Positions 1 through 21,351 of a stretch of 21,351 nt of DNA are shown here, piece after piece; the first letter of the stretch is position 1, and every line of letters starts with the position of its first letter. The DNA is taken from positions 1 through 21,351 of IMG/VR virus record IMGVR_UViG_2861043448_000004. One strand, given 5' to 3'. Below the pieces are notes generated by a model. It was not told the origin of the DNA. It worked only from the letters and a program-made list of their open reading frames with translations, and did no database searches. Source of the stretch: a virus (lineage: Duplodnaviria > Heunggongvirae > Uroviricota > Caudoviricetes). Both the position numbers and the translations under genes were made by a program.

Positions 1-165
1 AAGAAATAGGGCTTCCACCTGGGAAGCCCTTTCTTTTTATAGTTCGGCTGTATGTAGGGTACAGCACGATGAATCTGTTAGAGGCGCAATAGTGACAGAT
101 TTGATTATCAATTCCTATTTTGTTCTAAGGATAAAACCTTAGGTTGTGATCATCCGCACAATCCC

Positions 166-408: not shown

Positions 409-442
409 GATGCTCTCCCAAATATGAAATCTCTTGCTGGCA

Positions 443-459
443 TTACAAGAATCATGCCA
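443..459 (-). promoter_or_regulatory. Candidate sigma54 (-24/-12) promoter upstream of pspG
   Basis: Minus strand reads TGGCATGATTCTTGTAA, close to the sigma54 consensus TGGCAC-N5-TTGCW; pspG is known to be PspF/sigma54 dependent. Position relative to the start codon is plausible. Confidence 0.35.
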
Positions 460-541
460 AAAATAATCTATTGATTTAACAGCAAAATGCCCCGCGACGG
501 TGCGCAGGGCGTGGTGAATTTGACTACTTTTTGGTGAAAAG

Positions 542-1579: not shown

Positions 1580-1667
1580 TTTTGAACATTTCAGGCTATT
1601 TTTCTCGCGTTAGGTTCCCGCACAGGTTCCCACGCTTTATGGGAACCCGAAATAACGAGGTCGTGTA

Positions 1668-2765
1668 ATGGCGTACTATAACATAGAGAAACGACTAAAA
1701 TCCGATGGCACACCACGCTATCGCTGTAATGTGATTATCAAAGAAAAAGGTGTTATCACTTACAGGGAAAGCAAAACATTCCCTAAACATGCTCATGCCA
1801 AAACATGGGGCGCACAGAAAGTGATGGAATTAGATCTATATGGCATTCCATCATCAAATGCTGTTGACGGACTTACAGTCCGTGACTTACTACACAAATA
1901 TTTAAATGACCCAAATGCCGGAGGTAAAGCAGGCCGTACTAAAAGATATGTGCTGGAACTGCTTATGGATAGTGACATCTCCGCGATCAAACTATCTGAA
2001 CTGACAGAAAATGACGTAATTGAACATTGCAGGCTAAGAAACAACGCTGGTGCAGGCCCAGCAACAGTCAGCCACGATGTTAGTTATCTTGGCAGTGTTC
2101 TGGATGCGGCAAAACCTGTATACGGAATCAATTACACATCAAACCCGGCGAAAAGCGCTCGTCCATATCTACTTAAACTCGGTTTGATTGGTAAATCAAA
2201 CCGTCGTAATCGTAGACCAGCATCTGATGAACTGAACATGCTCATTGAAGGCCTTCAACAACGATCTACTCATAAATGCTCAAAAATTCCGTTCGTTGAT
2301 ATCCTCAAATTTTCTGTGTGGTCCTGTATGCGAATCGGAGAAGTATGCCGGTTACGATGGGAAGATCTCGACCAGGAACAAAAATCTATACTAGTAAGAG
2401 ACAGGAAAGATCCACGTAAAAAGGAAGGCAACCATATGAAAGTTGCCTTGCTTGGGGAAGCCTGGGATATCGTCCAGCGACAACCCAAAAAATCAGAATT
2501 CATTTTTCCATATAACAGCACTTCTGTTACCGCAGGATTTCAGAGGGTAAGAAGCAAATTAGGTATTAAAGATCTGAGATACCATGATTTGCGTAGAGAA
2601 GGGGCAAGTCGCTTATTTGAGGCTGGTTTTAGTATTGAGGAAGTCGCTCAGGTTACAGGGCATCGTTCATTAAACGTGCTATGGCAGGTATATACCGAAC
2701 TGTATCCGAAATCTTTACATAATCGTTTTGAAGAACTCCAAAGGAGCAGAAATAAGACCTCTTGA
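1668..2765 (+). CDS. int: Phage integrase, tyrosine recombinase (dusA-associated family)
   Basis: 365-aa ORF starting 88 bp upstream of and divergent from the dusA start; C-terminal catalytic region HDLRREGASRLFEAGFSIEEVAQVTGHRSLNVLWQVY carries the tyrosine recombinase H-x-x-R ... H ... Y signature; GAGG Shine-Dalgarno 7 nt upstream of the ATG. Confidence 0.9.
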   Translation: MAYYNIEKRLKSDGTPRYRCNVIIKEKGVITYRESKTFPKHAHAKTWGAQKVMELDLYGIPSSNAVDGLTVRDLLHKYLNDPNAGGKAGRTKRYVLELLMDSDISAIKLSELTENDVIEHCRLRNNAGAGPATVSHDVSYLGSVLDAAKPVYGINYTSNPAKSARPYLLKLGLIGKSNRRNRRPASDELNMLIEGLQQRSTHKCSKIPFVDILKFSVWSCMRIGEVCRLRWEDLDQEQKSILVRDRKDPRKKEGNHMKVALLGEAWDIVQRQPKKSEFIFPYNSTSVTAGFQRVRSKLGIKDLRYHDLRREGASRLFEAGFSIEEVAQVTGHRSLNVLWQVYTELYPKSLHNRFEELQRSRNKTS

Positions 2766-2813
2766 CACTGTTTATCCATACAGTTAAAAATAATACTGTA
2801 TACAAATACAGTG
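2762..2813 (+). promoter_or_regulatory. Sigma70-like promoter overlapped by two LexA (SOS) boxes
   Basis: TTGACA at 2762..2767; two CTGT-N8-ACAG boxes at 2768..2783 (CTGTTTATCCATACAG) and 2796..2811 (CTGTATACAAATACAG), the second a near-consensus 20-mer TACTGTATACAAATACAGTG; located immediately upstream of the dinI-like gene. Confidence 0.6.
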
Positions 2814-2825
2814 TAGGGGACTTTT

Positions 2826-3074
2826 ATGCGTATTGAAATCTGCATAGCCAAAGAAAAAATGACTAAAATGCCAACCGGTGCTGTGGATGCGTTAAAGGAA
2901 GAATTAACCCGACGCATCAGTAAACGTTATGACGATGTAGAAGTGATCGTAAAAGCCACCAGCAACGATGGCCTTTCTGTTACGCGCACCGCTGATAAAG
3001 ATTCAGCTAAAACTTTTGTTCAGGAGACTCTGAAAGATACCTGGGAGTCTGCTGACGAGTGGTTTGTTCATTAA
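2826..3074 (+). CDS. DinI-family SOS-response protein (prophage copy)
   Basis: 82-aa translation [11 protein letters not shown]...[11 protein letters not shown] resembles E. coli DinI (MRIEVTIAK...TWESADDWFV) end to end; AGGGGA Shine-Dalgarno 5 nt upstream; preceded by LexA boxes. Confidence 0.85.
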
Positions 3075-3105
3075 GTTCATCATCTCTGGACACCATTCAC
3101 TTGTA

Positions 3106-3134
3106 TTGACTTTAAGATCATTAAATTGTAATAA
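3106..3134 (+). promoter_or_regulatory. Candidate sigma70 promoter for the membrane protein-RT operon
   Basis: TTGACT at 3106..3111, 17-nt spacer, TAATAA(T) at 3129..3135; sits about 160 nt upstream of the ATG at 3297. Confidence 0.4.
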
Positions 3135-3296
3135 TTCAAAGGGATGGGGCAGGTTTTTCCTCTTGCGCATGCAAGGGCGGCTCTGATAATGAACAGTAAT
3201 ATTTTACTGTTGAGCTTATGCTCACTGATCCTGCCGGGCAGGATGTTCAACGGTTCCAATATATCCTGCCCCTTCCGCTTTTAAAAAGGATCTTTT

Positions 3297-3848
3297 ATGC
3301 ATGACAATATTTGGTTTACATATAAAGCACGTATCCAAGCGCACCATCGACTAGAATGGCTTGAAAAACACTCTCAATTTATCCTCGTTTGGTATGCTAT
3401 ATTGAGTGCGGTACTTTCAATTGTAACGTTGCGATTTCCAAAGGTTCTAGGAGATAATACAGATGTCGTTGCGGCGATACTTTCAGTGGCTCTACTGGGT
3501 ATTTCTCTGATCGTATCTAACCTAGATTTTCGTGGTCGAGCAATAGCCATGAGAAGGAATTATATTGCACTACAGCGACTCTATTTTGACATTACCACCA
3601 GTCAACAGTTATCTCTTGAACAGAAAGAAAAATATTTTAATTTGCTCAATGAGGTTGAGAATCACCGTGACATAGATGATAAAATTTCAAGGGTAACTCA
3701 AGTTGGACTTAAGACGAGGATCCCCACACAAAAAGAAAAAATAATTGTTATTTTATGGATATTACTTCGAATATTTATTACTGCCGCACTTTATATACTC
3801 CCATTAATATATCTTTGGATTGACTATGACTGCAAGCAGAATTTTTAA
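3297..3848 (+). CDS. Predicted multi-pass inner-membrane protein, partner of the reverse transcriptase
   Basis: 183-aa ORF with AGGA Shine-Dalgarno 6 nt upstream; hydrophobic helices FILVWYAILSAVLSIVTL, VVAAILSVALLGISLIVSNL and C-terminal IIVILWILLRIFITAALYILPLIYLWI; AT-rich codon usage unlike flanking genes; 3' end overlaps the RT start by 23 nt. Confidence 0.7.
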   Translation: MHDNIWFTYKARIQAHHRLEWLEKHSQFILVWYAILSAVLSIVTLRFPKVLGDNTDVVAAILSVALLGISLIVSNLDFRGRAIAMRRNYIALQRLYFDITTSQQLSLEQKEKYFNLLNEVENHRDIDDKISRVTQVGLKTRIPTQKEKIIVILWILLRIFITAALYILPLIYLWIDYDCKQNF

Positions 3849-5196
3849 AAAGTCATTCTCGAAAAAAAATCTTCTAAAAGTATACTCTGAAAAAATCAAA
3901 GAATCAGGAGCGATTGGCATAGATCGGATTCGCCCATCAAAACTTGATTTGACAATAAAAAATGAGATCACTTTCATTTTTGAAAAGGTTAATTCTGGCA
4001 ATTACAAATTTACAGCATATAAAGAAAAATTAATATCTAAAGGCGCTAACTCTACACCCAGACAGATTTCCATACCAACTGCTAGGGACAGAATTACTCT
4101 TAGAGCTCTCTGTGAATGCCTTACGGAAATATATCCTAAGTCCAGATTAAAACTACCACATACAGTAATTGACTCATTGAAAGAAGCATTAAACAACAGT
4201 CTATATGCTGAATATGCAAAAATAGATCTTAAAAGTTTCTATCCTTCAATTGAACATAAATTGATAATTAATGCAATAAAAAATAAAATTAGAAAAAAAG
4301 AAATTAGACAGTTAATAACATCATCATTAATCGTGCCTACTGTAAGTGGAACCACAGGAAGCAAAGGTATCCCTAATAATACCAGAGGAGTACCTCAGGG
4401 ATTAGCGATATCAAACATTTTAGCTGAAATATCACTATCTAATTTCGATGATGAAATCAATAAAATGCATGACATATGGTACATGCGATACGTTGATGAC
4501 ATTCTTATTTTAACACCAAAATATCAAGCAACAAAAATAGCTTCTCATATCATTGATAAGCTTCAATCATTAAATTTAAACCCACATCCATTAAATGAAG
4601 AGAACTCAAAATCCAAAGTAGGCAGTTTGGATGAAAGTTTTAACTTTTTGGGATACCACATAGAAAATCGAGAATTATTGATAAAACATGAGAGCATTCT
4701 TAGATTTGAGTCATCCTTAGCAAAAATTTTTACTGCATATAGGCACGCTCTACTACAAGCTAAAAGTAAGCGTGATAAAGAACGAGCTGTTGCATATTGT
4801 CAGTGGAAACTAAATCTCAGAATTACGGGATGTGTGTTTGAAGGTAAACGATTGGGATGGGTATCGTACTTCTCACAAATAACCTCAACAGCTCAACTTC
4901 GCTCTGTTAATCATACTATCAATAATCTTATCCGCCGATTCGGCCTTTCATCAGAAATAAAACCAAAATCTTTGATTAAAACTTTCTATGAACTCCGCAG
5001 AGGTAGAGCGGAGACTTTTAAATACATACCTAACTTTGACAATCTACATATATCTCAGAAACGAGAACTTGTTTCTATGTGGATAGGTAAAGAGAAGGAA
5101 AAAAAACTTAGCAATAGTGAAATAGAGAGGAAGTTTAAATTTAAAATTGCGAAATCAGTAAAAGAGCTTGAAGAGGATATTTCAGGAATATCATAG
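3826..5196 (+). CDS. Reverse transcriptase (defence-associated, non-retron motif pattern)
   Basis: 456 aa from the ATG at 3826 (track ORF begins at a TTG at 3820). RT motifs are all present: GIDRI, RQISIPTARDRITLRAL, YAEYAKIDLKSFYPSI, GVPQGLAISNILAEISL, YMRYVDDILIL (YVDD catalytic box), FNFLGYHI (FLG-type motif 7 rather than the retron VTG); about 170-aa C-terminal extension; AT-rich. Confidence 0.85.
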   Translation: MTASRIFKKSFSKKNLLKVYSEKIKESGAIGIDRIRPSKLDLTIKNEITFIFEKVNSGNYKFTAYKEKLISKGANSTPRQISIPTARDRITLRALCECLTEIYPKSRLKLPHTVIDSLKEALNNSLYAEYAKIDLKSFYPSIEHKLIINAIKNKIRKKEIRQLITSSLIVPTVSGTTGSKGIPNNTRGVPQGLAISNILAEISLSNFDDEINKMHDIWYMRYVDDILILTPKYQATKIASHIIDKLQSLNLNPHPLNEENSKSKVGSLDESFNFLGYHIENRELLIKHESILRFESSLAKIFTAYRHALLQAKSKRDKERAVAYCQWKLNLRITGCVFEGKRLGWVSYFSQITSTAQLRSVNHTINNLIRRFGLSSEIKPKSLIKTFYELRRGRAETFKYIPNFDNLHISQKRELVSMWIGKEKEKKLSNSEIERKFKFKIAKSVKELEEDISGIS

Positions 5197-5303: not shown

Positions 5304-5597
5304 TCAACGGATCAACAGCCAGATCAGAAGACACGCTACCATCGGCACAGCAAAATCCATCAGGCTTGCCACATCCCATGCGCGTGGATCAAAACCGCCC
5401 CACCACGGCATGTTAATCCGCTTGCCATGCCCGAACATTTCAATCCAGCGATATTATGCTTGGGTGTGTTCGCCCGCAATGAAGAACGTACAACTGGCTA
5501 TCGCTCCGTAAACCCAGTTTCCGGTAAAAAGCCCCACCAGTATCTGCGCAGCCACAGCACAAAGTGCATGAAGGAAAGGTGTTATACCCATTTTCAT
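5304..5597 (-). pseudogene. Small membrane protein gene interrupted by an in-frame TAA
   Basis: Minus-strand frame reads MKMGITPFLHALCAVAAQILVGLFTGNWVYGAIASCTFFIAGEHTQA, then TAA (5454..5456), then continues in the same frame YRWIEMFGHGKRINMPWWGGFDPRAWDVASLMDFAVPMVACLLIWLLIR to a TGA at 5304..5306. Hand translation; family not recognised. Confidence 0.35.
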
Positions 5598-5603
5598 CCT
5601 ACC

Positions 5604-5627
5604 CAATAAAACGGGGCGCACAGCCCC
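5604..5627 (-). terminator. Intrinsic terminator immediately after the tail fibre stop codon
   Basis: Minus strand GGGGCTGTGCGCCCC hairpin (5613..5627) followed by GTTTTATTG; lies 7 nt downstream of the stf stop. Confidence 0.5.
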
Positions 5628-5633
5628 TTAATA

Positions 5634-8477
5634 TTATTTAGAGGCAAGCGCCGCCTCAATTGCAGATAATCTTTGTTTTAATTCTGCGTTTTCTTCTTCC
5701 AGCGCGGTAACGCGATCATCTGTTTCACGGGCGACCTGAACAAGTAAGCCCGTCACGGCGGCGTAGTCAACATTCAGATAACGTGTTTCTTCACGTAATT
5801 CATTGCCGTCAACCGTTGGTCCCTGCAACTCTTTACCGTAATGAGTGAATGAGCCTACCGCTTCCGGTATTGCCTCCATTGCTTCCTGTGCAATAACACC
5901 AGCGTAAGGCAGTCCGTTTTCCTTAAGTGTGTAGGTGTACCCGTTCATTTTACGGATAGCTTCGGTTGCGTCACTGATAATCTGAATATTGTCTTTCAGC
6001 TCGCGGTCTGATAACTGATTCAGTGTTGTACAGTTAATAGCACCGTTTACATCAAACAGCTGACCTGACGATGTTTTTTGAGCATAAAACAGATACGCGG
6101 CAGACGTTCCAACCTCAAAAACGTTTTGTCGATCACCTGAACCCCACACCTTGACAGCAAATGGTAGTTCTGTATTACCTAAGTTCTGTAAAACAAAACG
6201 ATTGCCAGTCCCTGTTTGTTTTGTAAGAGTTAAATCAACAGTTGAGTTAACCTCATCCTTGTTGATAGTGAGCGCCTGCGCTTTAGCACCGTTAACAGCA
6301 CCTGTTTTGAGTTGAACCGCGCCGTCATTACCATTTAGCAGTATCTCAGCTCCGCTAAAGAAATTTTTTAGCGACAGCATCTTACTTACGCCGACTGATG
6401 AACCCAACGCCCACGCGAGAGAATTACCGGTGCTATCAAACCCACGTACAAAGCAATCCATTTTGCTATAGTCTGACGTGCTTCCAAGGACATCAATCCG
6501 CCCTCCGCCAGATTTTATCGGGTTAGATGTGGTTAATGACCTGACAGCAAGAGCGGTAGATGAATTGAGATCGTCTACTGTTAGTAATTTCTTCCATTCC
6601 TGCGTCGTTCCATTTTCAATTGTTCTTCCCCAAAAACCGGAATTGCGGCCTCCGAACTGCACAGCATAATTTTTACTAAATTGAACATGAATGCCGCCAA
6701 GAACCATAGAGCCTGCCGGGCCGTTTGTACTGCCTGCAATTGGTCTAAATTTGTCGACGTTATCAGTATGCTGAGCGTTCCAGTCTCGTCCTGTTTTTGT
6801 AAGCAGTCCTAATGTCGTGTCGAGCGCTTCGGTTAAAGTAAGGTTTTTAAATTTAACTGCGCTACTTTCGCCAAGACTTAAGTTGTTTCGCGCATCTTCT
6901 ACTGTTGTCGCACCTGTACCTCCTTGCCCAACAGCTAATGGCAACCAGCCAGTGCCATTATGACAACCCCACAAACCAGATTTGGAAACCTGTAAGCGTG
7001 GTGCGCCTGAAGAATACGTAGAATATACGTAAGTTGTTTCTTTTCCCTCTTCAACCCTTTCTGTTGATACATCTCTCTTCCATTCAGACCAGGTACCGCT
7101 ACCTCCTTCATATATTCGTCTATAAGTAATTCCCGGATTATTATAAGGGTGGTACACCTGAACGCAGGAAGAAGCAGTGTTGGCTCTCGTTTGGAGCACT
7201 ATTAAAGCGCCCGCCAGACCGATTGGGTAATTTAATTCTTCTGTTGCGTAAGCGCTCGTTGGTTGTTGATAGAAACCAGAATATTCACCGGTAAGGGTGT
7301 TTAGGTCAGTATTAGCAAGGCCAGCTTTTTGCTCATACATTACCCGCAAGTTCGCACGTGCTTGCTCGATAGTTCTTCCACCAGTACCACCCTGGGCTAA
7401 ACCTAACGGAGACCATTGTCCAGAAGAAGAATCATAAACCCCCCAACTCCCGTTAGTATGGATTTCAAAGAAACGATCACCAGTTGGACCATACATACGA
7501 GTTGTTGATTCATTTTGACCAAAGCGGCTTAATTCATCTCTGCGGGTATGACGTATCCATTGCGGGCCAGAACTTTGGCTGTAAATGTACGAATACAATG
7601 ATTTTGTATCTGAACCAACAAATAGACCGGAATATCTTTTTGTTGACACTTCTGATCTAACTATATAACCAGAAATAAGATTATCCCCGGCACTAGACGC
7701 TACTGATGGATAACCTTTCGCTGAGATGTAAATCCTGATAAATCCAATATAACCTGATGGCTCAACAGAGATATCAGTGCAGGTCATAGCAACTTCACCA
7801 AGACCAATATTGTTACCAACAACGGATTGTGCCTGGTTGCGATAATTAAGTGCGTCCGCTGCAGATTTCGCCGCGTTTGTTTCACTGGATTTAGCATTAG
7901 TTTCGCTGCTCTTTGCTGCTGCCTCGCTATTTTTCGCGTTGGTTTCTGATTTTTTGGCTGCTGTCGCGGAGTTTGCCGATGCAGTTTGTGAGGCCGCTGC
8001 CGCCTGTGCGCTGTTATCCGCATTCGTCTCAGACGTTTTTGCGGCCTTCGCGGAATTTCCTGCCGCCGTTGCCGAAGAGGCTGCACTACTGGCGCTCGAG
8101 GCTGCGCTCGTTTCTGATGATTTCGCTGCCTCTTTTGAGGCCGCCGCATCCCGGGCTGAGGTGGCAGCTTCTGACGCTTTCGTGGTCGCGGTGGATGCAG
8201 AAGTGGCTGCAGATTTTTGTGACGCTGCAGCATTCGTTTCTGACGTTTTCGCCGCACCGGCACTGGTAGCCGCCGCGCTTTTTGAGGACTCTGCAGCGGC
8301 AGCACTTTTTGATGCTTCAGTAGCCTTTGTTGATGCCGTTCCTGCGCTGGAAGACGCTGACTGAGCCGACGTCGCGGCCTGCCCGGCTGATGTGCTGGCT
8401 GCACGTGCTGAGCCTGCAGCATCAGTCGCATGGGTTCCCAGAGCACCACGCTGGCCGACTGCTCCGCACGGGTGCAT
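5634..8477 (-). CDS. stf: Side tail fibre protein lacking its N-terminal region, with C-terminal intramolecular chaperone (peptidase S74-like) domain
   Basis: Ala/Ser-rich repeats (SARAASTSAGQAATSAQ..., KTSETNA repeats) align with the part of lambda Stf that starts around residue 150 (from memory); two GQGGTG...ARxNL collar repeats; C-terminal LSDRELKDNIQ...VDYAAVTGLLVQ with ENAELKQRL coiled coil is typical of the self-cleaving chaperone domain. The first ATG directly follows the in-frame TGA of the upstream terminase fragment. Confidence 0.75.
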   Translation of the reverse strand: MHPCGAVGQRGALGTHATDAAGSARAASTSAGQAATSAQSASSSAGTASTKATEASKSAAAAESSKSAAATSAGAAKTSETNAAASQKSAATSASTATTKASEAATSARDAAASKEAAKSSETSAASSASSAASSATAAGNSAKAAKTSETNADNSAQAAAASQTASANSATAAKKSETNAKNSEAAAKSSETNAKSSETNAAKSAADALNYRNQAQSVVGNNIGLGEVAMTCTDISVEPSGYIGFIRIYISAKGYPSVASSAGDNLISGYIVRSEVSTKRYSGLFVGSDTKSLYSYIYSQSSGPQWIRHTRRDELSRFGQNESTTRMYGPTGDRFFEIHTNGSWGVYDSSSGQWSPLGLAQGGTGGRTIEQARANLRVMYEQKAGLANTDLNTLTGEYSGFYQQPTSAYATEELNYPIGLAGALIVLQTRANTASSCVQVYHPYNNPGITYRRIYEGGSGTWSEWKRDVSTERVEEGKETTYVYSTYSSGAPRLQVSKSGLWGCHNGTGWLPLAVGQGGTGATTVEDARNNLSLGESSAVKFKNLTLTEALDTTLGLLTKTGRDWNAQHTDNVDKFRPIAGSTNGPAGSMVLGGIHVQFSKNYAVQFGGRNSGFWGRTIENGTTQEWKKLLTVDDLNSSTALAVRSLTTSNPIKSGGGRIDVLGSTSDYSKMDCFVRGFDSTGNSLAWALGSSVGVSKMLSLKNFFSGAEILLNGNDGAVQLKTGAVNGAKAQALTINKDEVNSTVDLTLTKQTGTGNRFVLQNLGNTELPFAVKVWGSGDRQNVFEVGTSAAYLFYAQKTSSGQLFDVNGAINCTTLNQLSDRELKDNIQIISDATEAIRKMNGYTYTLKENGLPYAGVIAQEAMEAIPEAVGSFTHYGKELQGPTVDGNELREETRYLNVDYAAVTGLLVQVARETDDRVTALEEENAELKQRLSAIEAALASK

Positions 8478-9890
8478 TCATTCAGTGTTTCCTGCCGGAT
8501 AGCTGGCCGGATCAATTCGCTGGCTCTCCCCGTCGCTGTCACCGCGCAATGACTGCGTGATGTTGTAACGATCAATAATCCAGCGTTCGCCACGGCTGCC
8601 ATAGCCCGTTACCTGAACCACAAAACGGCGATGACGTCCCGCCTGCACATCCACTGTCGCCACAAGGAAATTAACGCCATCCGGCACACTGCGGGAAGGA
8701 ACTGGCTCTGCCCGCTGCTCAAGCAATTCACTTTTTCGTTGCTCCATGCTGGCGCGGGGAAGATAAGGTAATCCCCAGTCGGTATTGATAACCGTCTTGA
8801 GTGTCTCTTCACTTCCGGTTGTCTCGTATTCCTGTTCTGCAGTAAGCAGTTTGTAAACGAGTTGCGAGAGTGTCTGATAAGCAGCTGCCGGCCCCTCCAT
8901 CCAGAATGACGCAATACGTGAACGCCGGGGATCACCATAACGACTGCCATCTGCATTGATGGATTCACCATCCCGTAACCAGACCCCACGTCCGTTCAGC
9001 TCGCGTTTTTGTTCAGGCAAAATCCGTCCTGAACAGGAAGGACACTGAATATAAGCCGCCTCACTTGCCAGCACAGGATCGGCAATATCACGGAAACCAG
9101 CAACCACATCGCCGCAGGGCTGAAAATACTCACCACAGTGTGGACAGGGCCAGTACCAGCGACGGCGATCGCCACGGTTATAGAGCGACAGGATCCCCGT
9201 GGTTGGTGGAGCCTCATGCGGTGAAGTCCGTCGCCATTTCACATCCTTCACATCCCTGCCGGGGGAACTCTCCACCAGCGTCATACCACTGGACATAAAT
9301 GTGGTGGTACGTTTTGAGGCAAGAGAGAAGGCATCCCCCTCACCATCAATATCTTCCGGAAAACGGTCATAATCCGTCAGCGCCACGCATTTATAATCTG
9401 ATGAAGACATGATATTGACTGACGGCCAGCCGATTTTCAGGTAGTTGCCAGCAAGGAATGTTCTGTCATAAACGTTGTTGTCATTTTTGTTCGGACTCAG
9501 GCGACTGACCACTTCCGGGCTGACGCGAAACGTTCTGGCGAGTCGTTTTTTGGAGTGTTCGCGGGCTTTTTCCTCCGTCATCTGAATGATCAGCATATCA
9601 GCAGGATCGCAAATCACGTTGTAAATCACCCAGCCGTCAATCAGGCCGATAGTCTTGCCGGTTCGTGCCGGGCCAACAAATATCACTGCGTCGTATTCAC
9701 GCGAGGCCAGGCAGTTCATAGGCTCAATAACATACGGTGCCACCAGCGGATCCCACGGGACTGAGTTCCCTGCCCCCATGGGCACCCGCATATACTGAGC
9801 AACGGCATCAGCAACCCGCATTCGTCTCGGTGCGCGAAGGATATAACCTGAATCGGTTCGTGCTGCCTTTGCGGTTTCCTGATTCAGCAT
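8478..9890 (-). pseudogene. Terminase large subunit (GpA family), C-terminally truncated
   Basis: 470 aa against about 640 in lambda gpA; contains GPARTGKT Walker-A-like motif, zinc-finger-like WPCPHCGEYFQ ... CPSCSG and WIIDRYNI resembling lambda gpA ACPHCGEE and SWLIDRQII; start overlaps the small-subunit stop (TAATG) with GGAGGAG Shine-Dalgarno; ORF ends abruptly at TGA directly abutting stf. Confidence 0.75.
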
Positions 9891-10381
9891 TACTCCTCCT
9901 GCTGTAATTCCTCCTCATCATCCGCACCTGCTTCGGTCACCCGCAGGGCTATCTGATCGCGCAGATCATCAATAATGGACTGAACACGGCTCACAGCAGC
10001 AGGCTGCAGGCCGCAGTCACGTTCCAGAATATCCGGTAATGTCTCCAGCACCTGCACGACCGCTTTTGCCCAGATGGCAAACTCCCGTCTGACATCACTG
10101 GCCGGAATGAGTTGTGCCGTTTCCTGTTCGAACTTAAGACGCTCACGTTCAGACTGATACCAGGCTTTGCGTTCATGTGGATCCATTTCGCCCTCAGCAA
10201 CCGGCGGTGGTAACCCCATAAATTCAGTCAGAATATCGGTCAACCGGTATAGCTTGAGTTTGTCATGTCCACCAGCGGGACGAATGTTTTTCAGTCTTGC
10301 CACGACAGTCTGGCGGTGCAGACCAGATAAAGCCGCCAGTTGATTAATATTCAGCACCAGGTTTTTCAACTCATGATCCAT
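9890..10381 (-). CDS. Terminase small subunit (Nu1-like, N-terminal HTH)
   Basis: 163 aa; N-terminus MDHELKNLVLNINQLAALSGLHRQTVVARLKNIRPAGG is a winged-HTH resembling lambda Nu1; GGAGG Shine-Dalgarno 4-5 nt upstream; acidic C-terminus; translationally coupled to the large subunit. Confidence 0.65.
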   Translation of the reverse strand: MDHELKNLVLNINQLAALSGLHRQTVVARLKNIRPAGGHDKLKLYRLTDILTEFMGLPPPVAEGEMDPHERKAWYQSERERLKFEQETAQLIPASDVRREFAIWAKAVVQVLETLPDILERDCGLQPAAVSRVQSIIDDLRDQIALRVTEAGADDEEELQQEE

Positions 10382-10555
10382 ATTTCCTCCGGAGAGCTTT
10401 AAACATGCATCGTGCGAACAACTTTAAGAAAACGCGTTCGATGTCGAACAAAAAACACGCAATTCGACATACAAAAAACAAATAATCATTAATAATCAAT
10501 AAGATGTAAAGATGATGGTGGCCGATAAAAATGCAAAAACTAGCCTTTTTCCGCG

Positions 10556-10567
10556 ACGCTCCCGCCC
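10556..10567 (-). other. Candidate cosN cohesive-end site
   Basis: Minus strand reads ACGGGGCGGGAGCGTCGCGG, closely resembling lambda ACG-GGGCGGCGACCT-CGCGG (lambda cos recalled from memory); lies about 180 bp upstream of the terminase small-subunit start, as in lambda. Confidence 0.4.
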
Positions 10568-10998
10568 CGTGGCAGGCCACCCCACCGGGAGGACCCGTCA
10601 GCCTGACAGCTCTGACGAACGTCTGATACAACGCCTTGCATGAATGGCATCGGGATAATCCAGAAAGGCATAGCATCGTGCCCACAAGAATCTGTGTAAG
10701 TGTCCTGTTTCTTCCACCCCCGCACAGGACTGGCGAGCATGAGGGACAAACCCGCGAACCATAAACGCGGTAAAAACCCGGTGTGCATCGTTTTTGATTA
10801 TTCCCGCACACTCTCGCAGAAGGAGTTCCCCGTCGGGCTACGGTCTCTGTTAATACGGGAATACGGCGACGATACAGCGCATGATGTGTCAGGCTTGAAT
10901 ACCTTTATCCGTTAAAAGGGATATCAGTTAAATTATCCCGTGTAGGGTATAAGCCATTGTCAAAGACACTCGACATGGAATGGGCTTTGTAATAGCAA

Positions 10999-11020
10999 TA
11001 AAAAACCGCCCGGAGGCGGC
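10999..11020 (-). terminator. Candidate intrinsic terminator downstream of the 79-aa gene
   Basis: Minus strand GCCGCCTCCGGGCGG hairpin followed by TTTTTT (plus-strand A-run at 11000..11005). Confidence 0.45.
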
Positions 11021-11059
11021 ATTTCAAGTGTGACGTATGTTAGATCAAAAACTTAAATA

Positions 11060-11299
11060 CTAACTGTCGAATTTGTTTCGTAACTCCGGCGACAGTGACG
11101 ACCACCAGTTTATCGCTTCAAGTGCTTCTTTCTCTATATAATTTTTTTTATAGAATGCTTGCAATTGAGGTAGCACATTATCATGTGAGAATGCCTCTGA
11201 AATTTTGAAGTCTGCACCTAAGTGCATCGCTCCCATTTTCAATACCTTGAGATACCCATGGATTTCAGCATGTTTTTCAAAATCATCTAATATATTCAT
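11060..11299 (-). CDS. Hypothetical small protein (79 aa) between lysis genes and cos
   Basis: Intact ORF MNILDDFEKHAEIHGYLKVL...; followed by a terminator; family not recognised. Confidence 0.45.
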   Translation of the reverse strand: MNILDDFEKHAEIHGYLKVLKMGAMHLGADFKISEAFSHDNVLPQLQAFYKKNYIEKEALEAINWWSSLSPELRNKFDS

Positions 11300-11326
11300 T
11301 TCTTCATCCTTTAGTGAGAGCGCTCA

Positions 11327-11354
11327 ACATACTACATACTACATACTACATAAT
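11327..11354. repeat. Tandem heptanucleotide repeat (ACATACT) x3 plus one imperfect unit
   Basis: ACATACT ACATACT ACATACT ACATAAT read directly; spans the Rz stop codon and the upstream region of the 79-aa gene. Confidence 0.85.
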
Positions 11355-11807
11355 GCACTGGGTGACGATATAGTTCTGCAGATAACTAATCTGTTTAGTC
11401 ACTGTGACGATTCGCTCTCTAAGGGTGAAATAATCCCGTTCAGCGGAGTCATTAAGTCGGGGGCTGGTAACATCGCCCAAGCTGCCGGTGCTGGTCGCTC
11501 CATTCGCGGGACATCTGGCGTTGAAGTGCAGCCCACACTTGCCAGTGCGAACACAACGCTGCAAATCATCAAGCTGCTTTTTAGCATCAGCTAAGTCCTT
11601 CGTGTATTTGGCATCCAGAGCCGCTACATCACGCTGGCGGATCTGCATGTCTTTGATGGTGGCGTTCGCCAGTTTCAGTTCTCTGGTGTTTTTGTCGCGC
11701 TGCTCTTTGTAAGTCATGGCGTTATCCCGGTAATGATTAACAGCCCATGACAGACAGACGATGATGCAGATAACCAGAGCGGAGATAATCGCGGTTAATC
11801 TGCTCAT
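11346..11807 (-). CDS. Rz: Spanin inner-membrane subunit Rz (i-spanin)
   Basis: [30 protein letters not shown]... is near-identical in its first ~70 residues to lambda Rz; ATG at 11807 overlaps the upstream stop (ATGA). Confidence 0.9.
11399..11587 (-). CDS. Rz1: Spanin outer-membrane lipoprotein Rz1 (o-spanin), embedded in the Rz +1 frame
   Basis: 62-aa ORF wholly inside Rz in another frame; lipobox LASVGC, proline-rich [12 protein letters not shown] and PLNGIISP motif shared with lambda Rz1. Confidence 0.8.
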
Positions 11808-12178
11808 TTCTGCCCCCACAAACAGACTTCACGCTCAATCTCCCGACGAGTCATCAGTCCTTTCCATTGCTTACCGCCAGCGTATGTCCAGCGACGTAGC
11901 TGATCACACGCACCTTTGATATCGTCCCGGTTGATTTTGCGAAGAAGCGTCGATGTTCTGAAATTTCCAGTATCCGGAGGAAACAACACGATCTCCACTG
12001 AAGCAGGTGCCGACGTTGGTTTCGGCAGACGACGTAACTGCTCAACTATTGCTGCGCACGCCGCGCTCTGAAATTTTCGCCCCGCCTCGCTTATCAGGCT
12101 CTTACCAGCAAATGCCCCTTTGTTGGGGTGTCGCCAGTACGTGTTCACACTGGGCGGGAAAGGAAGGATCAACTTCAT
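11804..12178 (-). pseudogene. Chimeric ORF: RusA resolvase N-terminus fused to endolysin C-terminus
   Basis: Residues 1 to about 68 (LPFPPSVNTYWRH...VEIVLFPPD) resemble RusA (LPWPPSNNRYYRH...) but stop before the catalytic acidic cluster; the remainder [54 protein letters not shown] matches the C-terminus of a DLP12 RrrD-type lysozyme (from memory). Confidence 0.6.
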
Positions 12179-12501
12179 ACTTTCAGGCCCCTCTCATGTA
12201 ACCAGTGGGCTGCACGCAACCTGGCGTTCTCCTCACCGGCAAGCAGTGCGCGGATGATACCGACCGCCTCGCTGTCGTCGTCCTTCACTGCGGTATGAAG
12301 CGTGATCCCCCGGGCCACGCCACGCTTTATCGTGATGACGCCTTTTTTCTCCAGTGCGCGAAGATGCTCCACGGCTGCATTCACTGAACGGTATCCCAGC
12401 ATGGTTGCCACCTCCTGATTGGTTGGCAGAAAGCCACGCTCTTGCTGGTAAGAAATCAGAATATCCAGCACCTGCTGCTGGCATTGAGTTAACGTCGTCA
12501 T
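12175..12501 (-). CDS. LexA-like winged-helix DNA-binding protein with no peptidase domain
   Basis: 108 aa; MTTLTQCQQQVLDILISYQQERGFLPTNQEVATMLGYRSVNAAVEHLRALEKKGVITIKRGVARGITL parallels LexA residues 1 to about 70 (MKALTARQQEVFDLI...[30 protein letters not shown]); no S24 Ser/Lys domain follows. Confidence 0.6.
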   Translation of the reverse strand: MTTLTQCQQQVLDILISYQQERGFLPTNQEVATMLGYRSVNAAVEHLRALEKKGVITIKRGVARGITLHTAVKDDDSEAVGIIRALLAGEENARLRAAHWLHERGLKV

Positions 12502-13151
12502 GCCGCCATCTCCCTAACCAGTTTTTCCGCCTGCTGGCGAACCTGCGCCAGAAACGCCTCACCACATGCCTCAAGTTCATCGCGCCCGATGTAGCTGATT
12601 GCCGGTCCCTTCCAGGTCTTATCGAAAACAGCAATAGCACCAGCGAAGAAAGCGCCTGTCGGCACCTGCTTCTCATCCTTCGGGATAAACCAGGCAGGCA
12701 GTTCAAAACCAATACGCCCGCGAATAAAAGCAATATGGTCCGCATCTTCCGGCCACCACACTTCGCTGGTGGCAGCTTTGATCAGGAAAACATAGCGCCC
12801 ACCCTTATCACGCATGGCACTGGCATGTTTCATGATGTAACGCATGCCGGTGATGTATTGCCCCTCATGCTGACTGGCGCGGCTGTATGGGGGATTACCA
12901 AAGGCAGCCCCTTTAAGCTCCGCAAGACGTTCTGACCAGTCATGCGCCAGCGCGTTGTCTTCCGCCGTGTAATACGCAGCACATTTGGCGTTATCACCGT
13001 CAGTGAACAGATCCAGAACAAACGGGCCAAACAGGGTGTTAATTCCCCAGAAAATGTTGTCCGGCGTGCGCCACTGATCGCCCACTTCCTTCAGTTCATG
13101 GGCTGGTTTGTTCCGCAGTTCCACCAGCGCCTGGCAATATTTATTACTCAT
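12498..13151 (-). CDS. Phage Dam-like DNA N6-adenine methyltransferase (orphan)
   Basis: 217 aa from the ATG at 13151 (TAATG overlap with the upstream stop); NPPY catalytic motif in AAFGNPPYSRAS; no adjacent restriction endonuclease. Confidence 0.75.
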   Translation of the reverse strand: MSNKYCQALVELRNKPAHELKEVGDQWRTPDNIFWGINTLFGPFVLDLFTDGDNAKCAAYYTAEDNALAHDWSERLAELKGAAFGNPPYSRASQHEGQYITGMRYIMKHASAMRDKGGRYVFLIKAATSEVWWPEDADHIAFIRGRIGFELPAWFIPKDEKQVPTGAFFAGAIAVFDKTWKGPAISYIGRDELEACGEAFLAQVRQQAEKLVREMAA

Positions 13152-13639
13152 TAAGCCCCCACGTAATTCCCTGACAGATACCACTCATCACCCGGTACAG
13201 CGCGCTTGCTGCTTTTCCGTAAACACCGCTCACGACGCGCAAGAAAATTGTTTCGCTCTGGCTGGGAGTGGCTTTCACGGAATGCCGCCATCCACACCGT
13301 TGCAGCACGACGGTATAAGCCCCTCGACTCCAGTTCTTCCGCCTGGCGGGTCAGGCACAAAATCACCCGGGGATCGTTAGTGCCGACATAGAAATTGCGC
13401 ACAGGTCTGGTTTCACGAACTGGTTGCGGTTCCGCCTCCTGCGCTCTCTCAGTCAGGCGCGGGAAATGTCTGCGTGTATCCCCTTCACAACGGTGAGCCA
13501 CACGACCACTCTGACGTAACTTGCTTGCTGACTGCAGAACGCGCTGCCGTGAGTAACCTGCAAAAGCATCCGCAATGTCTCCGGAAGTACACCCCGGATG
13601 GGCTTCAATGTATTTCTGAACTTCATTCAAAAGACTCAT
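13151..13639 (-). CDS. Hypothetical phage protein (YfdN-like; PerC-like motif near C-terminus)
   Basis: About 162 aa from the ATG at 13639; segment LESRGLYRRAATVWMAAF resembles the PerC/Pch family signature (from memory); translationally coupled on both sides. Confidence 0.45.
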   Translation of the reverse strand: MSLLNEVQKYIEAHPGCTSGDIADAFAGYSRQRVLQSASKLRQSGRVAHRCEGDTRRHFPRLTERAQEAEPQPVRETRPVRNFYVGTNDPRVILCLTRQAEELESRGLYRRAATVWMAAFRESHSQPERNNFLARRERCLRKSSKRAVPGDEWYLSGNYVGA

Positions 13640-13641
13640 GA

Positions 13642-14460
13642 TCACCCCCTGAATCCTGCCGGGATCTGGCTGTAGTCCACGTTGTCGTAACTGGCTTTGA
13701 AGTACGGGTCCTCGCGTCTGGCTGCAGATACCGCAGGAACTTCCCAGGATTCTTCGAAATGACGATCCGGACCAAAGAACGTGACAGCCTGTTTCACAAA
13801 TTGTGTGCCGCTGTTACCCATCGCAGATACCCAGCCCGCGTAGCGTTTCACACCTTCCAGCATGGTTTCGGGGTTTACCCCCTCATTCAAACGGGCTTTC
13901 CAGGCTTTGAAGGCTGCAGATTTTGAATTGCCACCAGCACGTTTGGGATATACCAGCCATGCCTGCTCAAACTCCGGAGAGTATTCCGGTCGGTTTGAAC
14001 GAACTCGCACGGACTCATCAACTGATGCACCAACAGCTATTGGTTCATTGACTGGTTCTTTGACTGGTTCAAAAGAGTGACTGGTTCTGGGTGAATCTCC
14101 TGCACTACCCCCTGGTGCAACTCCTGCACTACCTGGTGAATTTGCTGCACCAGATAGTGAATTATTTGCACTACCCCCTAGTGAATCTCCTGCACCATCC
14201 AGATGAAGGAGATAGATATTACTTGAGTTACCTTTTTCACCTTTCCGGGTGACTTTTTTTACCAGCCCGGACTCACAAAGGGCCGCAATATGATTCATCA
14301 CAGAACGTTTGCTAATCTCGCACTGGTCAGCAATATGCTGGTAGCTGGGCCAGCACTCACCCTGATCGCTGGCATTATCAGCCAGCTTGATCAGAACCAG
14401 TTTTCGCAATGGATTACCCACTCGAATTTTCATCGCTTTAACCATCAGCTCCATACTCAT
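13642..14460 (-). CDS. Phage replication initiation protein (N-terminal HTH, repeat linker, C-terminal domain)
   Basis: 272 aa; N-terminal LRKLVLIKLADNASDQGECWPSYQHIADQCEISKRSVMNHIAALCESGLVKK is a replication-initiator-type winged HTH; low-complexity Gly/Ser/Ala/Pro linker encoded by DNA direct repeats; gene order matches the lambda O position. Confidence 0.65.
   Translation of the reverse strand: MSMELMVKAMKIRVGNPLRKLVLIKLADNASDQGECWPSYQHIADQCEISKRSVMNHIAALCESGLVKKVTRKGEKGNSSNIYLLHLDGAGDSLGGSANNSLSGAANSPGSAGVAPGGSAGDSPRTSHSFEPVKEPVNEPIAVGASVDESVRVRSNRPEYSPEFEQAWLVYPKRAGGNSKSAAFKAWKARLNEGVNPETMLEGVKRYAGWVSAMGNSGTQFVKQAVTFFGPDRHFEESWEVPAVSAARREDPYFKASYDNVDYSQIPAGFRG
14049..14200. repeat. Direct-repeat arrays inside the replication gene (candidate origin iterons)
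   Basis: Three copies of TGACTGGTTC (14049..14086) then about five imperfect ~22-bp units of GGTGAATCTCCTGCACTACCCCCT type (14090..14200). Confidence 0.5.
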
Positions 14461-14693
14461 GCTGCACCTCCGAGATGCTTCATGTTTTTTCCGGAGCGAA
14501 AGGCTATAAGCGGCATACTGACGCGGTAATTACGGCCCAGCGGTTCACAAATCACCTTCTGGCATTCACGGTCAACCAGGCTAACACGTAGAACATGCCC
14601 TGCAGGTGTGGTGTACCACTGCCCAACTGTAGGAATTGATGTTTTTTTACGCTGAAGCAAACGGCAAATATTGAGGATCAACGGATTAAGCAT
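14457..14693 (-). CDS. Hypothetical small phage protein (78 aa)
   Basis: ORF with ATGA-type overlaps to both neighbours in the early-right operon; no recognised family. Confidence 0.45.
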   Translation of the reverse strand: MLNPLILNICRLLQRKKTSIPTVGQWYTTPAGHVLRVSLVDRECQKVICEPLGRNYRVSMPLIAFRSGKNMKHLGGAA

Positions 14694-15522
14694 GACGATG
14701 CCCTCCGCTGATATTCAGGAGACGGTGAATATGAAAATTAGCCTTATCCGCCAGACGAATACGTTCAGCCTGCAAGTTAAGAAGGGTTTCTACCAGAACT
14801 TGATGCGCCTGCGGATCCGAAAGAGTTACCTTGCGCAGAGCACGTAGTGCAGTTGTTACATAACTGAGTTTATGTAAGTCTTCATCATTCAGACGAGTGA
14901 GGGCTGGGACAGTAGCCATGATGGCAGCCTCCGATAACAGTGAATTACCTTCACCACCGGAAACGCCAATTTCGCTGGTGGTGAACTGAACGGGGTTGGC
15001 GTAACCGGCGTTATCGGAAACCGGCGCACCTTTCGGTGCCCCCGTCCAGCCCACCATAATTTGGGTGTGCACAGACGCAGACGATAAAAAAGACGCTGGC
15101 GCGTCATATATCGCCGATAACATTTCCAGGACGCCAATCCCGGCACCCGCTTTATAAGGTGCCTGAACAGTGTAACGTCCCGGAATGGCAGAATCAATGT
15201 GCTGGTGGTCCTTCACACTCAACAAAATCACGCCTGAATTTCCACAAAGGACTAAAGCACTCATGCGGGTAGTCTTTGCGAAGATAGATAACGCGCTGTG
15301 TTTCTGGCTCCCAACGAATAACATGGACATAAAGCCCTCTTCCGTCACGAAACCAGCGGTTAAGTTCCTGCACAACTCGCCCCCCACAGTCAGGTAAAGT
15401 TCTCTGTGGTTACTTACAGCCAGGTGATTTGGTAATCTGCATTCATGCCGTAACAACAGGTGTTCAGCGACACTGACCACCAGCTGTTGCGACAAACGGT
15501 TATTTGCCGTTAAACTGTTCAT
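14686..15522 (-). CDS. Hypothetical phage protein (278 aa), possibly YdaU-like
   Basis: Long intact ORF, translationally coupled to the upstream gene; family assignment tentative and from memory only. Confidence 0.5.
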   Translation of the reverse strand: MNSLTANNRLSQQLVVSVAEHLLLRHECRLPNHLAVSNHRELYLTVGGELCRNLTAGFVTEEGFMSMLFVGSQKHSALSIFAKTTRMSALVLCGNSGVILLSVKDHQHIDSAIPGRYTVQAPYKAGAGIGVLEMLSAIYDAPASFLSSASVHTQIMVGWTGAPKGAPVSDNAGYANPVQFTTSEIGVSGGEGNSLLSEAAIMATVPALTRLNDEDLHKLSYVTTALRALRKVTLSDPQAHQVLVETLLNLQAERIRLADKANFHIHRLLNISGGHRHA

Positions 15523-16082
15523 GCGTTAGTTTCTCCACAGACACAAAACGCCACGACGCCCGGAGCTGCACACTCGCGGGCGTCACTCTTTTCTGGAGCG
15601 CAAAAGATTTTGTAGACCAGTGCTGCATGCTCCTGGAGCTTCGAAATTGACAGATACAACTCATCATTAATTGCTGTCTGCTCGTGTGGCTCCACTACCC
15701 CATCTTCGATTGCCGAACGAATCTGCTTTGAGTAACTCCCGATCTGTTCGATGACTTCCAGCAGGCGCTGGTTTATATCGGCGTTCTCTACTTCCTCAAT
15801 TTCAGGAAGCGATACAAACACCCCACCAGCAGACTGTGCGACAGCATCCGCAATGTAGTGAGTGCCAGCCGCGCGCTGTAAAATCATTGCCCATCCCAGC
15901 GGGAAAATCTGATCGCCATCTGCACGAAGGCGGTTGAATAAAGCGTTCTCTGTTACATCCAGCCACTCAGCAGCTTCAGCGTAACCCCCCGGCAACGCCG
16001 CGATAGTTTTTCTGACAGCTTTCACGTACCACTCAGGCTGTTTTTCTACTTTCCAGTGATGCTTACCCACGGTTAGCCTCAT
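15519..16082 (-). CDS. Putative CII-like early regulatory protein (187 aa)
   Basis: Sits immediately downstream of the cro-like gene in the cII position; identity inferred from position more than from sequence. Confidence 0.4.
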   Translation of the reverse strand: MRLTVGKHHWKVEKQPEWYVKAVRKTIAALPGGYAEAAEWLDVTENALFNRLRADGDQIFPLGWAMILQRAAGTHYIADAVAQSAGGVFVSLPEIEEVENADINQRLLEVIEQIGSYSKQIRSAIEDGVVEPHEQTAINDELYLSISKLQEHAALVYKIFCAPEKSDARECAAPGVVAFCVCGETNA

Positions 16083-20287: not shown

Positions 20288-20315
20288 TAACCCGTATATG
20301 TACGGGTTATTTTTC
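20288..20315 (+). terminator. Candidate intrinsic terminator between convergent genes
   Basis: AACCCGTAtatgTACGGGTT hairpin followed by ATTTTTC; overlaps the stop codon of the minus-strand gene. Confidence 0.45.
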
Positions 20316-20855
20316 TTTATCACTATCTTTTCTTGATTTGAACAATCCACTAACAACGAAACCAACCAAACCAACAATACTAATTGTACTTGTACCTAGT
20401 AATGCAACGATCGCTTCAACTGGAGCCTTTCCTTCATGTGCAATAAGAAACGATGTAAACATTGCGACAACGAATAAGCACCAACACGACATAAACCAAA
20501 CCGTGAATGATGCCATTTTTGTCCGGAGCTCATTGTCTATTTCTTTACCAGTTGCGTCAGCTATCTTATCCCGTACTTGTGATTTGAGCATATCAAGCTG
20601 AGCTTGAAGACTGTCCATTCTGTTCTGCTGCATAAACTCATGCAATGCACCAGTATTAGAACCAAACTCTTCTTCCTCCAGAATAGCCTTATTTTCTGAA
20701 GAAGAATCATCATCGCGTTCATGATTAGACGGCTCAAATGCGGATTCAAAAGCCTGCTCTTGACTGTCAGTAGAGTTTAAGGATGCTTCAGAGCGACCAT
20801 TTTCAACACCTGCGGCCGCTCCGATCAGTTTATAGATATCTGAATTATGAGACAT
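20307..20855 (-). CDS. Small membrane protein with acidic N-terminal region; candidate toxin partner of the Panacea protein
   Basis: 182 aa; N-terminal half acidic and polar with predicted coiled coil (LQAQLDMLKSQVRDKIADATGKEIDNELRTKM); C-terminal two hydrophobic helices (FTVWFMSCWCLFVVAMFTSFLIA and AIVALLGTSTISIVGLVGFVVSGLF); starts 22 bp downstream of the Panacea gene on the same strand. Confidence 0.55.
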   Translation of the reverse strand: MSHNSDIYKLIGAAAGVENGRSEASLNSTDSQEQAFESAFEPSNHERDDDSSSENKAILEEEEFGSNTGALHEFMQQNRMDSLQAQLDMLKSQVRDKIADATGKEIDNELRTKMASFTVWFMSCWCLFVVAMFTSFLIAHEGKAPVEAIVALLGTSTISIVGLVGFVVSGLFKSRKDSDKEK

Positions 20856-20877
20856 GTCATCCCTGAATATTACTTTT

Positions 20878-21351
20878 TCAGAGGCCCTGACATTGCTGTC
20901 GGTTATTCAATAAATCATGATAATAAGCCTTGATCGCATCATTTGAGATGATCGACGAGCCAATACCATTATAAGCTTGTGACCAAGGCGTACCTGGCAT
21001 ATGAGTTAGAGTTGATAACTCAATTCCATTTTTCGAGCCGTAAAACTTATAAACAGCCCCGATAATGCTCTCTGCTTGCGGATCCATAGTAACGATGCCA
21101 CCAAAAGGAGCTACTGCTACATTCGTAACAGGTTTATTCCCATAGTCTTTGAAAGCATCGTACATTCCAGGAATAACTGGACCGTACTTCCACGCGGAGA
21201 CACATTCATTGAGCAAAGGCTTACCTGTTAATGCTAAATAGTAACCATGGGCAATATAAGTAAGCTTCTGCAGTTGCATGTGGGTCAGAGGATTATGATG
21301 TTGGTTTCCCAACGTTATGAATTTATTGGCTATTTGTACCGGACTGTACAT
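20878..21351 (-). CDS. Panacea-domain (DUF4065, SocA-like) protein; candidate antitoxin
   Basis: 157 aa; MQLQKLTYIAHGYYLALTGKPLLNECVSAWKYGPVIPGMYDAFKDYG matches the Panacea core pattern (KLQKLLYyaqG ... pLf ... AW.yGPV ... Y). Start codon is the last three bases of the window, so the upstream region is unseen. Confidence 0.65.
   Translation of the reverse strand: MYSPVQIANKFITLGNQHHNPLTHMQLQKLTYIAHGYYLALTGKPLLNECVSAWKYGPVIPGMYDAFKDYGNKPVTNVAVAPFGGIVTMDPQAESIIGAVYKFYGSKNGIELSTLTHMPGTPWSQAYNGIGSSIISNDAIKAYYHDLLNNRQQCQGL

Follow-up and report, generated by a model that had tools for sequence, protein, structure and literature searches.

A probable deletion scar joining rusA to an rrrD-type endolysin gene in a defective Escherichia coli prophage

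The chimeric reading frame and its neighbours

The window analysed here is the whole 21,351-nucleotide stretch of IMG/VR record IMGVR_UViG_2861043448_000004, an Escherichia coli prophage integrated in the 5′ end of dusA. Its left end carries dusA, an integrase gene and a DinI-like gene, and its right end a repressor gene, YfdP/YfdQ, a PrtN-like gene and a Panacea-domain gene. The window ends ~400 bp before the right attachment site, and the equivalent part of a second copy of the prophage (L001) holds only a duplicated dusA fragment. On the minus strand lies an open reading frame of 124 amino acids (11804..12178), annotated in RefSeq as two pseudogene fragments, that we designate rusA'-'rrrD on the basis of the identity of its two halves to intact RusA and RrrD. 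Directly upstream is an early-operon gene (12175..12501, minus strand) for a 108-residue protein with a LexA DNA-binding domain (Pfam LexA_DNA_bind, E = 1.8e-17), whose stop codon overlaps the ATG of the chimeric frame in an ATGA arrangement. Downstream, the stop codon of the chimeric frame is overlapped by the start of an intact gene for the inner-membrane spanin Rz (11346..11807, minus strand; 153 residues; Pfam Phage_lysis, E = 1.4e-39; 'lysis protein' in RefSeq), and the outer-membrane lipoprotein spanin Rz1 is encoded within Rz in another frame (11399..11587, minus strand; Pfam Rz1, E = 1.5e-13), so both spanin genes are retained where a preliminary description of this DNA had placed them.

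That description had read the chimeric frame as ~68 residues of RusA followed by the last ~55 residues of an RrrD-type lysozyme, and comparison with L002 (NZ_CP053785.1), a near-identical prophage at dusA in which rusA and rrrD are both intact, bears this out with a true split of 69 plus 55. Residues 1-69 are identical (100%) to residues 1-69 of the 129-residue L002 RusA, and residues 70-124 are identical (100%) to residues 111-165 of the 165-residue L002 RrrD/R21-type endolysin, so the GH24 C-terminal lobe sequence is present. The rusA 5′ part (codons 1-69; 11973..12178, minus strand) ends before the catalytic residues, as judged from the alignment to PDB 1q8r, and the rrrD 3′ part (codons 111-165 and the stop codon; 11804..11970, minus strand) ends at the stop codon that Rz overlaps. 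Between them, when the window is aligned jointly with the left and right L002 flanks, the joint falls at a TA dinucleotide common to the two parents (11971..11972). The first two bases of codon 69 lie in the rusA part and its third base within the shared TA, which also holds the first base of rrrD codon 111.

Profile and structure searches recover the two halves unevenly. Pfam finds only a C-terminal Phage_lysozyme match (residues 70-115, profile positions 80-125 of 125); the RusA domain (PF05866) was absent from the chimeric frame at E <= 0.01, and full-length L002 RusA matches it with E = 4.9e-15. In PHROGs, the RusA-like family phrog_34 covers residues 1-69 (E = 2.7e-22) with no full-length RusA match, and endolysin families span residues 61 or 70 to 123, among them phrog_7910 (61-123). 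The best PDB matches are phage 21 lysozyme and E. coli RrrD (3hdf, 3hde and 4zpu; E ~1e-32), and matches to RusA are weak and confined to residues 3-70. Given that Pfam missed RusA, the assignment of the first half rests on identity to the intact relative and on PHROGs. With each half matching an intact gene of the syntenic L002 at 100%, the two-half match is not a matter of chance. Pairwise alignment and synteny together thus place each half colinear with a separate intact L002 gene, with a single joint between them, and the frame as a whole is not colinear with any one protein family.

An undeleted relative and the extent of the deletion

Window positions 8492..11972 correspond to L002 9193..12673 and window positions 11971..15413 to L002 19668..23110. 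Because these two flanks meet with an overlap of only the 2-bp TA, the deletion relative to L002 amounts to 6,996 bp; its joint is clean and contains no filler. In rusA and rrrD alike, the TA straddles a codon boundary (third position, then first position), so that the reading phase is kept across the joint and the 124-codon frame survives, an outcome with a chance of one in three. The preliminary description had proposed that one deletion explains the fusion, which this joint supports, and had taken rusA, Q, S and R to be consecutive, which does not hold here, as the deleted interval held eight complete genes besides parts of rusA and rrrD. Pfam identifies in the L002 copy of this interval a KilA-N gene, a DUF968 gene with an HNH-like motif and the Q antiterminator gene (PF06530); the remaining genes are a two-gene cargo cassette on the opposite strand, a 64-aa ORF, an N6/N4 DNA methylase gene and a P21-type holin gene (PF04971). 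The cassette lies between Q and the methylase gene (L002 14946-17317, plus strand) and encodes an NA37 nucleoid-associated protein and a 408-residue partner of unassigned family, neither of which matched a PADLOC model. This cargo position is variable, being occupied in other relatives by a 148-aa ORF, DUF6731, or a porin gene with an AraC gene.

We searched the window for second copies of the lost genes. When ten deleted or truncated L002 proteins were used as tblastn queries, the only sequence recovered was that of the two fused fragments. Further, Pfam and PHROGs scans of the other substantial window ORFs detected no Q, holin or lysozyme, and a hydrophobicity scan of all ORFs of at least 40 residues detected no holin-like candidate near the cassette. 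The earlier claim that Q, the holin and the 5′ end of the endolysin gene have been lost therefore stands, and the lambdoid lysis set with Q is incomplete in the window, with Rz and Rz1 only. A simple scan revealed no terminator-like site between the LexA-domain gene and Rz, so that Rz/Rz1 are now fused to the early operon. The first convincing hairpin and T-run (GCCGCCTCCGGGCGGT followed by the T-run; 11005-11020, minus strand) lies past a 79-aa ORF that follows Rz, and the lysis transcription unit probably ends there, ahead of the cos/terminase region.

The prophage had already lost other genes. Relative to L042 (NZ_CP098841.1), an essentially intact relative at dusA, 8,732 bp of head and tail genes are missing at an older joint where tail gene L meets the portal gene, and every locus with the rusA-rrrD joint shares or derives from this L-portal joint. 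The loss of head and tail genes thus predates the rusA-rrrD deletion, and the element was non-viable before that deletion took place. The window also carries a further deletion compared with two RefSeq genomes: L001 positions 6948..9192 are missing, and an L fragment is joined to a truncated terminase gene (window 8492-8501). This L-terminase joint, at 8501/8502 with the overlap CCGGATA, fuses the first L codons to the truncated terminase large subunit in a 470-aa ORF (8478..9890); no record among complete RefSeq E. coli genomes had the arrangement at >=80% coverage.

All mapped deletions fall between the tail-fibre gene and the cro-like gene, and the integrase gene, the DinI-like gene, the reverse-transcriptase pair, the tail-fibre gene, the repressor region and a toxin-antitoxin-like pair were kept in every mapped variant. 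The reverse-transcriptase pair (window 3297-5196, plus strand) consists of a SLATT_5 membrane-effector gene followed by the reverse transcriptase gene, a defence-associated pair carried as prophage cargo, for which the PADLOC model RT_UG17 matches the reverse transcriptase with E = 1e-158 and its SLATT partner is matched with E = 1.5e-56. At the element's right end (window 20307-21351, minus strand), a gene for a Panacea-domain (SocA-like antitoxin) protein lies upstream of a gene for a 182-aa protein that has two predicted C-terminal membrane segments and zero Pfam matches; these two may form a toxin-antitoxin pair. The S74-peptidase tail-fibre gene (window 5634-8477, minus strand; 717 aa in RefSeq) has a frame that stays open for 230 codons further upstream, across the L fragment to the terminase joint, which suggests that a longer ancestral fibre gene was truncated at its 5′ end. 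Downstream of the fibre gene are two short ORFs with hydrophobic segments (5304-5621, minus strand), annotated in RefSeq as one hypothetical gene with an internal stop. The tail-fibre region of L042 includes a segment that can invert, accompanied by a Pin-like serine recombinase and its crossover sites (L042 34935-34960, 36780-36805 and 36866-37429); compared with L042, the window has a different fibre module and no invertase.

Distribution of the joint

A megablast search of window positions 11300..12600 against 5,426 complete E. coli genomes found the whole stretch in two chromosomes, and thousands of genomes, L002 among them, match one side only. Strain 035152 (NZ_CP101705.1) is one carrier of the joint. 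The identical junction occurs in independent assemblies from China and Tanzania as well as in SRA/metagenome contigs: the same 39-nt sequence is present in nine loci (L001 and L003-L010), and the joint was also mapped in L013, L017, L035 and L041. The exact 124-aa protein (SZD50974.1) was found on 34 contigs in one look-up and in 60 blocks in the index; the look-up was by exact sequence, and all copies that it found are therefore identical. The intact arrangement is represented in 28 complete genomes that cover at least 80% of a 7.5-kb query, and many relatives share its gene order (LexA-like, RusA, KilA-N, DUF968, antiterminator, methylase, holin, lysozyme). One metagenome contig (L005; ENA ERZ27293264 k141_12038, positions 1-3460) has the rusA-rrrD joint beside a different immunity and replication-initiator region, with an HTH_3/S24 repressor and a P22-Cro-like gene. 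Two prophages may have recombined there, the joint may have formed a second time, or the metagenome assembly may be chimeric.

Deletion joints across the prophage family

We mapped other versions of the prophage (loci L002, L004-L021, L033-L035, L041 and L042) and the window to a composite reference. This gave 17 distinct deletion joints, 14 of which have TA inside the crossover overlap, where ~1.3 would be expected. The overlap is TA alone at eight joints, and TAC, GTAT, GATA, GGATA, TACCC and CCGGATA at one joint each; the three joints lacking TA have the overlaps CACCC and TGCC and, in one case, zero overlap. No dinucleotide of the region is rarer than TA (4.8%), and in 200,000 simulated random joints the probability of TA in an overlap of at least 2 bp was 0.053. 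The binomial probability of 14 of 17 is ~8e-16, a figure to be read with the fact that the joints share sites and hosts and are not fully independent.

TA lies at the break in 20 distinct sites, and five endpoints recur. In reference coordinates, endpoint 6462 is used three times, 6947 at the start of L five times (including the original L-portal joint), 23393 in ymfL twice, and 9202 in the terminase gene once as a left and once as a right partner. The fifth, 12673, is the rrrD breakpoint of the rusA-rrrD fusion and is used twice. Its second use is an independent deletion in L033 (GCA_016760455.1, ~7900-7925; reference 12673 joined to ~19190) that breaks rrrD at the same point, directly after CCAGTA, and has its other end inside KilA-N, between GGGCTTA and TCCACATTG; rusA is intact there and the fusion is a different one. 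The partner sites of this L033 deletion are alike at 9 of 11 bases (TACCCACGTTG and TATCCACATTG). Both ends of the rusA-rrrD joint lie at apparent hot spots, and for this reason the joint could have arisen more than once. L002 itself lacks ~285 bp comprising the end of ymfL and the adjacent gene (window 15414-15695 against L002 23108-23110), with a TAC overlap, and the ymfL endpoint of this loss is also the right partner of the large L-ymfL deletion in L011, L019 and L021.

The flanks of the TA sites have a weak preference: in a manual tally of the 20 sites, G stands two bases before TA in 14 and C two bases after it in 12. Next to each of the two window joints we also noted a copy of TATCCGG(C)AGGAAACA, the two copies being inverted relative to each other. 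The copy at the rusA-rrrD joint, located on its rusA side, is TATCCGGAGGAAACA (11971..11985, plus strand), for which a pattern search gave two window matches with 0 expected, and a near-identical inverted copy, TATCCGGCAGGAAACA (8486..8501, minus strand), stands at the start of tail gene L at the L-terminase joint. We rejected this 15/16-nt motif as a special signal, since ~40 kb of sequence should contain a gapped repeat of such length by chance alone. Its placement at both window joints is non-random, and the general preference for TA and its flanks describes it better.

Discussion

A probable single deletion and its product

Taken together, the identity of both halves to intact neighbours in L002 and the clean joint between the L002 flanks support a single deletion as the event that accounts for the rusA-rrrD fusion. 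The best explanation overall, in which we place high confidence, is that a defective lambdoid prophage in E. coli dusA underwent one illegitimate deletion of 6,996 bp across its late-regulatory and lysis genes, which joined rusA codon 69 to codon 111 of the rrrD-type endolysin gene at the shared TA and left the reading frame as its scar, most likely an inactive pseudogene. The deletion would have followed the loss of head and tail genes as one step of a continuing stepwise decay that differs between strains, and its joint would be a member of the TA-centred class with recurrent endpoints across the prophage family.

Three other readings of the fusion were weighed against this one. That the junction is an assembly or sequencing artefact has practically no chance of being correct, as two closed RefSeq chromosomes, each from a different country, have the identical 39 nt and so do seven more independent contigs, which refutes an artefact. 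One event is formally indistinguishable from two nested events that leave no intermediate, and two or more successive deletions might be considered for a prophage that piles up many deletions, reuses its endpoints and shares the rrrD endpoint with the deletion in L033; we nevertheless regard such a history as improbable, given that no intermediate arrangement occurs among the loci examined and that the joint carries the TA overlap alone with zero leftover sequence. The reading that we judge still less probable is that the chimeric protein is made and useful, for example with the N-terminal part of RusA binding DNA junctions or poisoning RusA dimers while attached to the lysozyme C-terminal lobe. 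The frame is indeed open, with a start codon in translational coupling with the early gene upstream, and at least 34 contigs carry the sequence without variation. However, an in-frame joint has a one-in-three chance of arising, the whole catalytic lobe of the lysozyme and roughly half of RusA are absent, further deletions in L008 extend into the neighbouring region, and L033 has formed a different fusion at the same site. The invariance is uninformative on selection, since it follows from the look-up by exact sequence and from recent common descent.

The residues that each parent has lost argue in the same direction. In the RusA structural work, R69, D70, D72, K76 and D90/D91 are critical for DNA binding and catalysis (PMC1636454). 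When intact L002 RusA is aligned to 1q8r, the RusA part of the chimera stops at D69, equivalent to K-12 D65, and the equivalents of all these residues lie in the deleted part of rusA, in agreement with the preliminary description, which had the RusA segment ending before its catalytic acidic residues. The lysozyme triad has the motif Glu-X8-Asp-X5-Thr (PMC9239132), found in intact RrrD as E35-X8-D44-X5-T50; it lies within residues 1-110 and is absent from the chimera. The alanine/glycine-rich signal-anchor segment that forms the intact RrrD N-terminus is likewise absent from a protein that starts as RusA, and no membrane segment was detected in the chimeric frame by hydrophobicity scan. Because the product is without the catalytic and main DNA-contact residues of RusA and without the signal-anchor and Glu-Asp-Thr triad of the lysozyme, it is most likely inactive, and the frame itself, judged from its sequence, is most likely a dead pseudogene that is in frame by accident. 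In both chromosomes that carry the whole stretch, RefSeq describes this DNA as a RusA fragment missing its C-terminus beside a glycoside hydrolase fragment missing its N-terminus, and the fusion alone is an ordinary, routine deletion-derived pseudogene already flagged there. The 124-aa chimera is deposited as SZD50974.1 under the name 'Lysozyme RrrD' despite its missing catalytic half.

With Q, the holin and the endolysin gone, the element would be unable to turn on late transcription or to lyse the cell, as far as its gene content can tell, and it is reasonable to expect that induction would be non-lytic. The spanins Rz and Rz1 alone would not be expected to bring about cell lysis, and would have no function without a holin and an endolysin. 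Losing Q, the holin and the endolysin may even be advantageous, since a defective prophage that kept them could plausibly kill its host on induction.

The origin of the TA joints

The strong preference for TA and the reuse of endpoints suggest that the breaks in this prophage are not random. TA might instead be ordinary microhomology from random breakage and end joining, with the TA rule and hot spots as sampling noise, in keeping with the fact that 2-bp overlaps are common in illegitimate recombination, that 3 of the 17 joints lack TA and that many joints share sites and so are not fully independent. We consider this unlikely, as random joining would have to hit the rarest dinucleotide of the region at the frequency calculated above, with 20 distinct TA sites at the breaks and five recurring endpoints. 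A preference of this kind leads us to a tentative proposal, for which we would claim possibility rather than probability: the rusA-rrrD joint may be among the products of an activity that cuts and rejoins DNA with a sequence preference and takes the prophage apart at TA with weak GNTANC flanks. The constant palindromic 2-bp crossover suggests a cut with a 2-nt stagger, any end of which could anneal to any other. A palindromic TA would let any two breaks join, and would thereby yield both the 2-bp TA joints and the recurrent endpoints. The candidate enzyme, whether a recombinase, a transposase or a nuclease, would be resident in the host lineage or belong to the prophage; none of the 2-nt-stagger kind is encoded in the window.

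The joints are similar to the products of serine invertases/resolvases and of IS630/Tc1-mariner transposases in that their minimal overlap is exactly 2 bp and is a constant palindromic dinucleotide, and their flanks have a weak dyad symmetry (GNTANC) as in 2-bp-stagger recombination and TA-targeting systems. Unlike TA-targeting transposition, the deleted segments here are without flanking transposon ends. Several specific agents were set aside. The Pin-like serine invertase of L042 is not a direct source, as its crossover sites have a TT/AA core and unrelated arms (TTCTCGCATACC-TT-GGTTTAGGAGAA, with the partner site upstream of the invertase gene). Gyrase trapped by quinolones cleaves ahead of a G and leaves a 4-bp stagger (PMC6379681), which is not an obvious fit to a constant TA with G at -2 and C at +2, so DNA gyrase is not supported. 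The attachment regions used by the element's integrase share an 83%-identical 107-bp dusA 5′ segment that has no evident relation to the TA sites, and for Rpn nucleases the published study consulted gives no matching cleavage-site preference. A literature search on TA-dinucleotide deletions in prophages returned nothing relevant, and we did not find this preference described in the papers searched. The pattern of TA and endpoint reuse is the only part of this analysis that might be of specialist interest, and a larger phylogenetically controlled census should come before any claim of mechanism.

Comparison with other prophages and implications

The parent genes belong to the same families as DLP12 rusA and the DLP12/phage 21 lysis cassettes (the essD/S21 pinholin, rrrD/R21 signal-anchor endolysin, rzpD/Rz and Rz1 genes), with intact L002 RusA matching PDB 1q8r at E = 1.9e-17, and they share the order rusA, Q, holin, endolysin, spanins. 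Unlike DLP12 and phage 21, KilA-N and DUF968 genes stand between rusA and Q in the undeleted arrangement, and cargo genes and the methylase gene stand between Q and the holin gene. In the window, by contrast, the holin gene and Q are deleted, and rusA and rrrD persist only as complementary halves fused in frame. The cryptic E. coli prophages DLP12, e14, Rac and Qin have undergone deletion-driven decay. The present element is like them in its stepwise loss of morphogenesis, lysis and late-regulation genes and in keeping its integrase, repressor and accessory cargo, here the reverse-transcriptase defence pair and the Panacea-domain pair. It differs from cryptic prophage decay in general in its strong TA preference at the crossover and in its reuse of endpoints.

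For annotation, the value of these results is that the 'Lysozyme RrrD' of the public record cannot be a lysozyme. For the element, the fusion marks a prophage whose own genes would not suffice to lyse the host. If the proposed cut-and-rejoin activity is real, prophage decay here would be partly enzyme-driven and site-biased, as opposed to the outcome of random illegitimate recombination. With one prophage at one chromosomal site in at least 17 deletion states across strains, this family is a naturally occurring setting in which to ask how prophages are taken apart, whether randomly or by an enzyme, and which genes are always kept.
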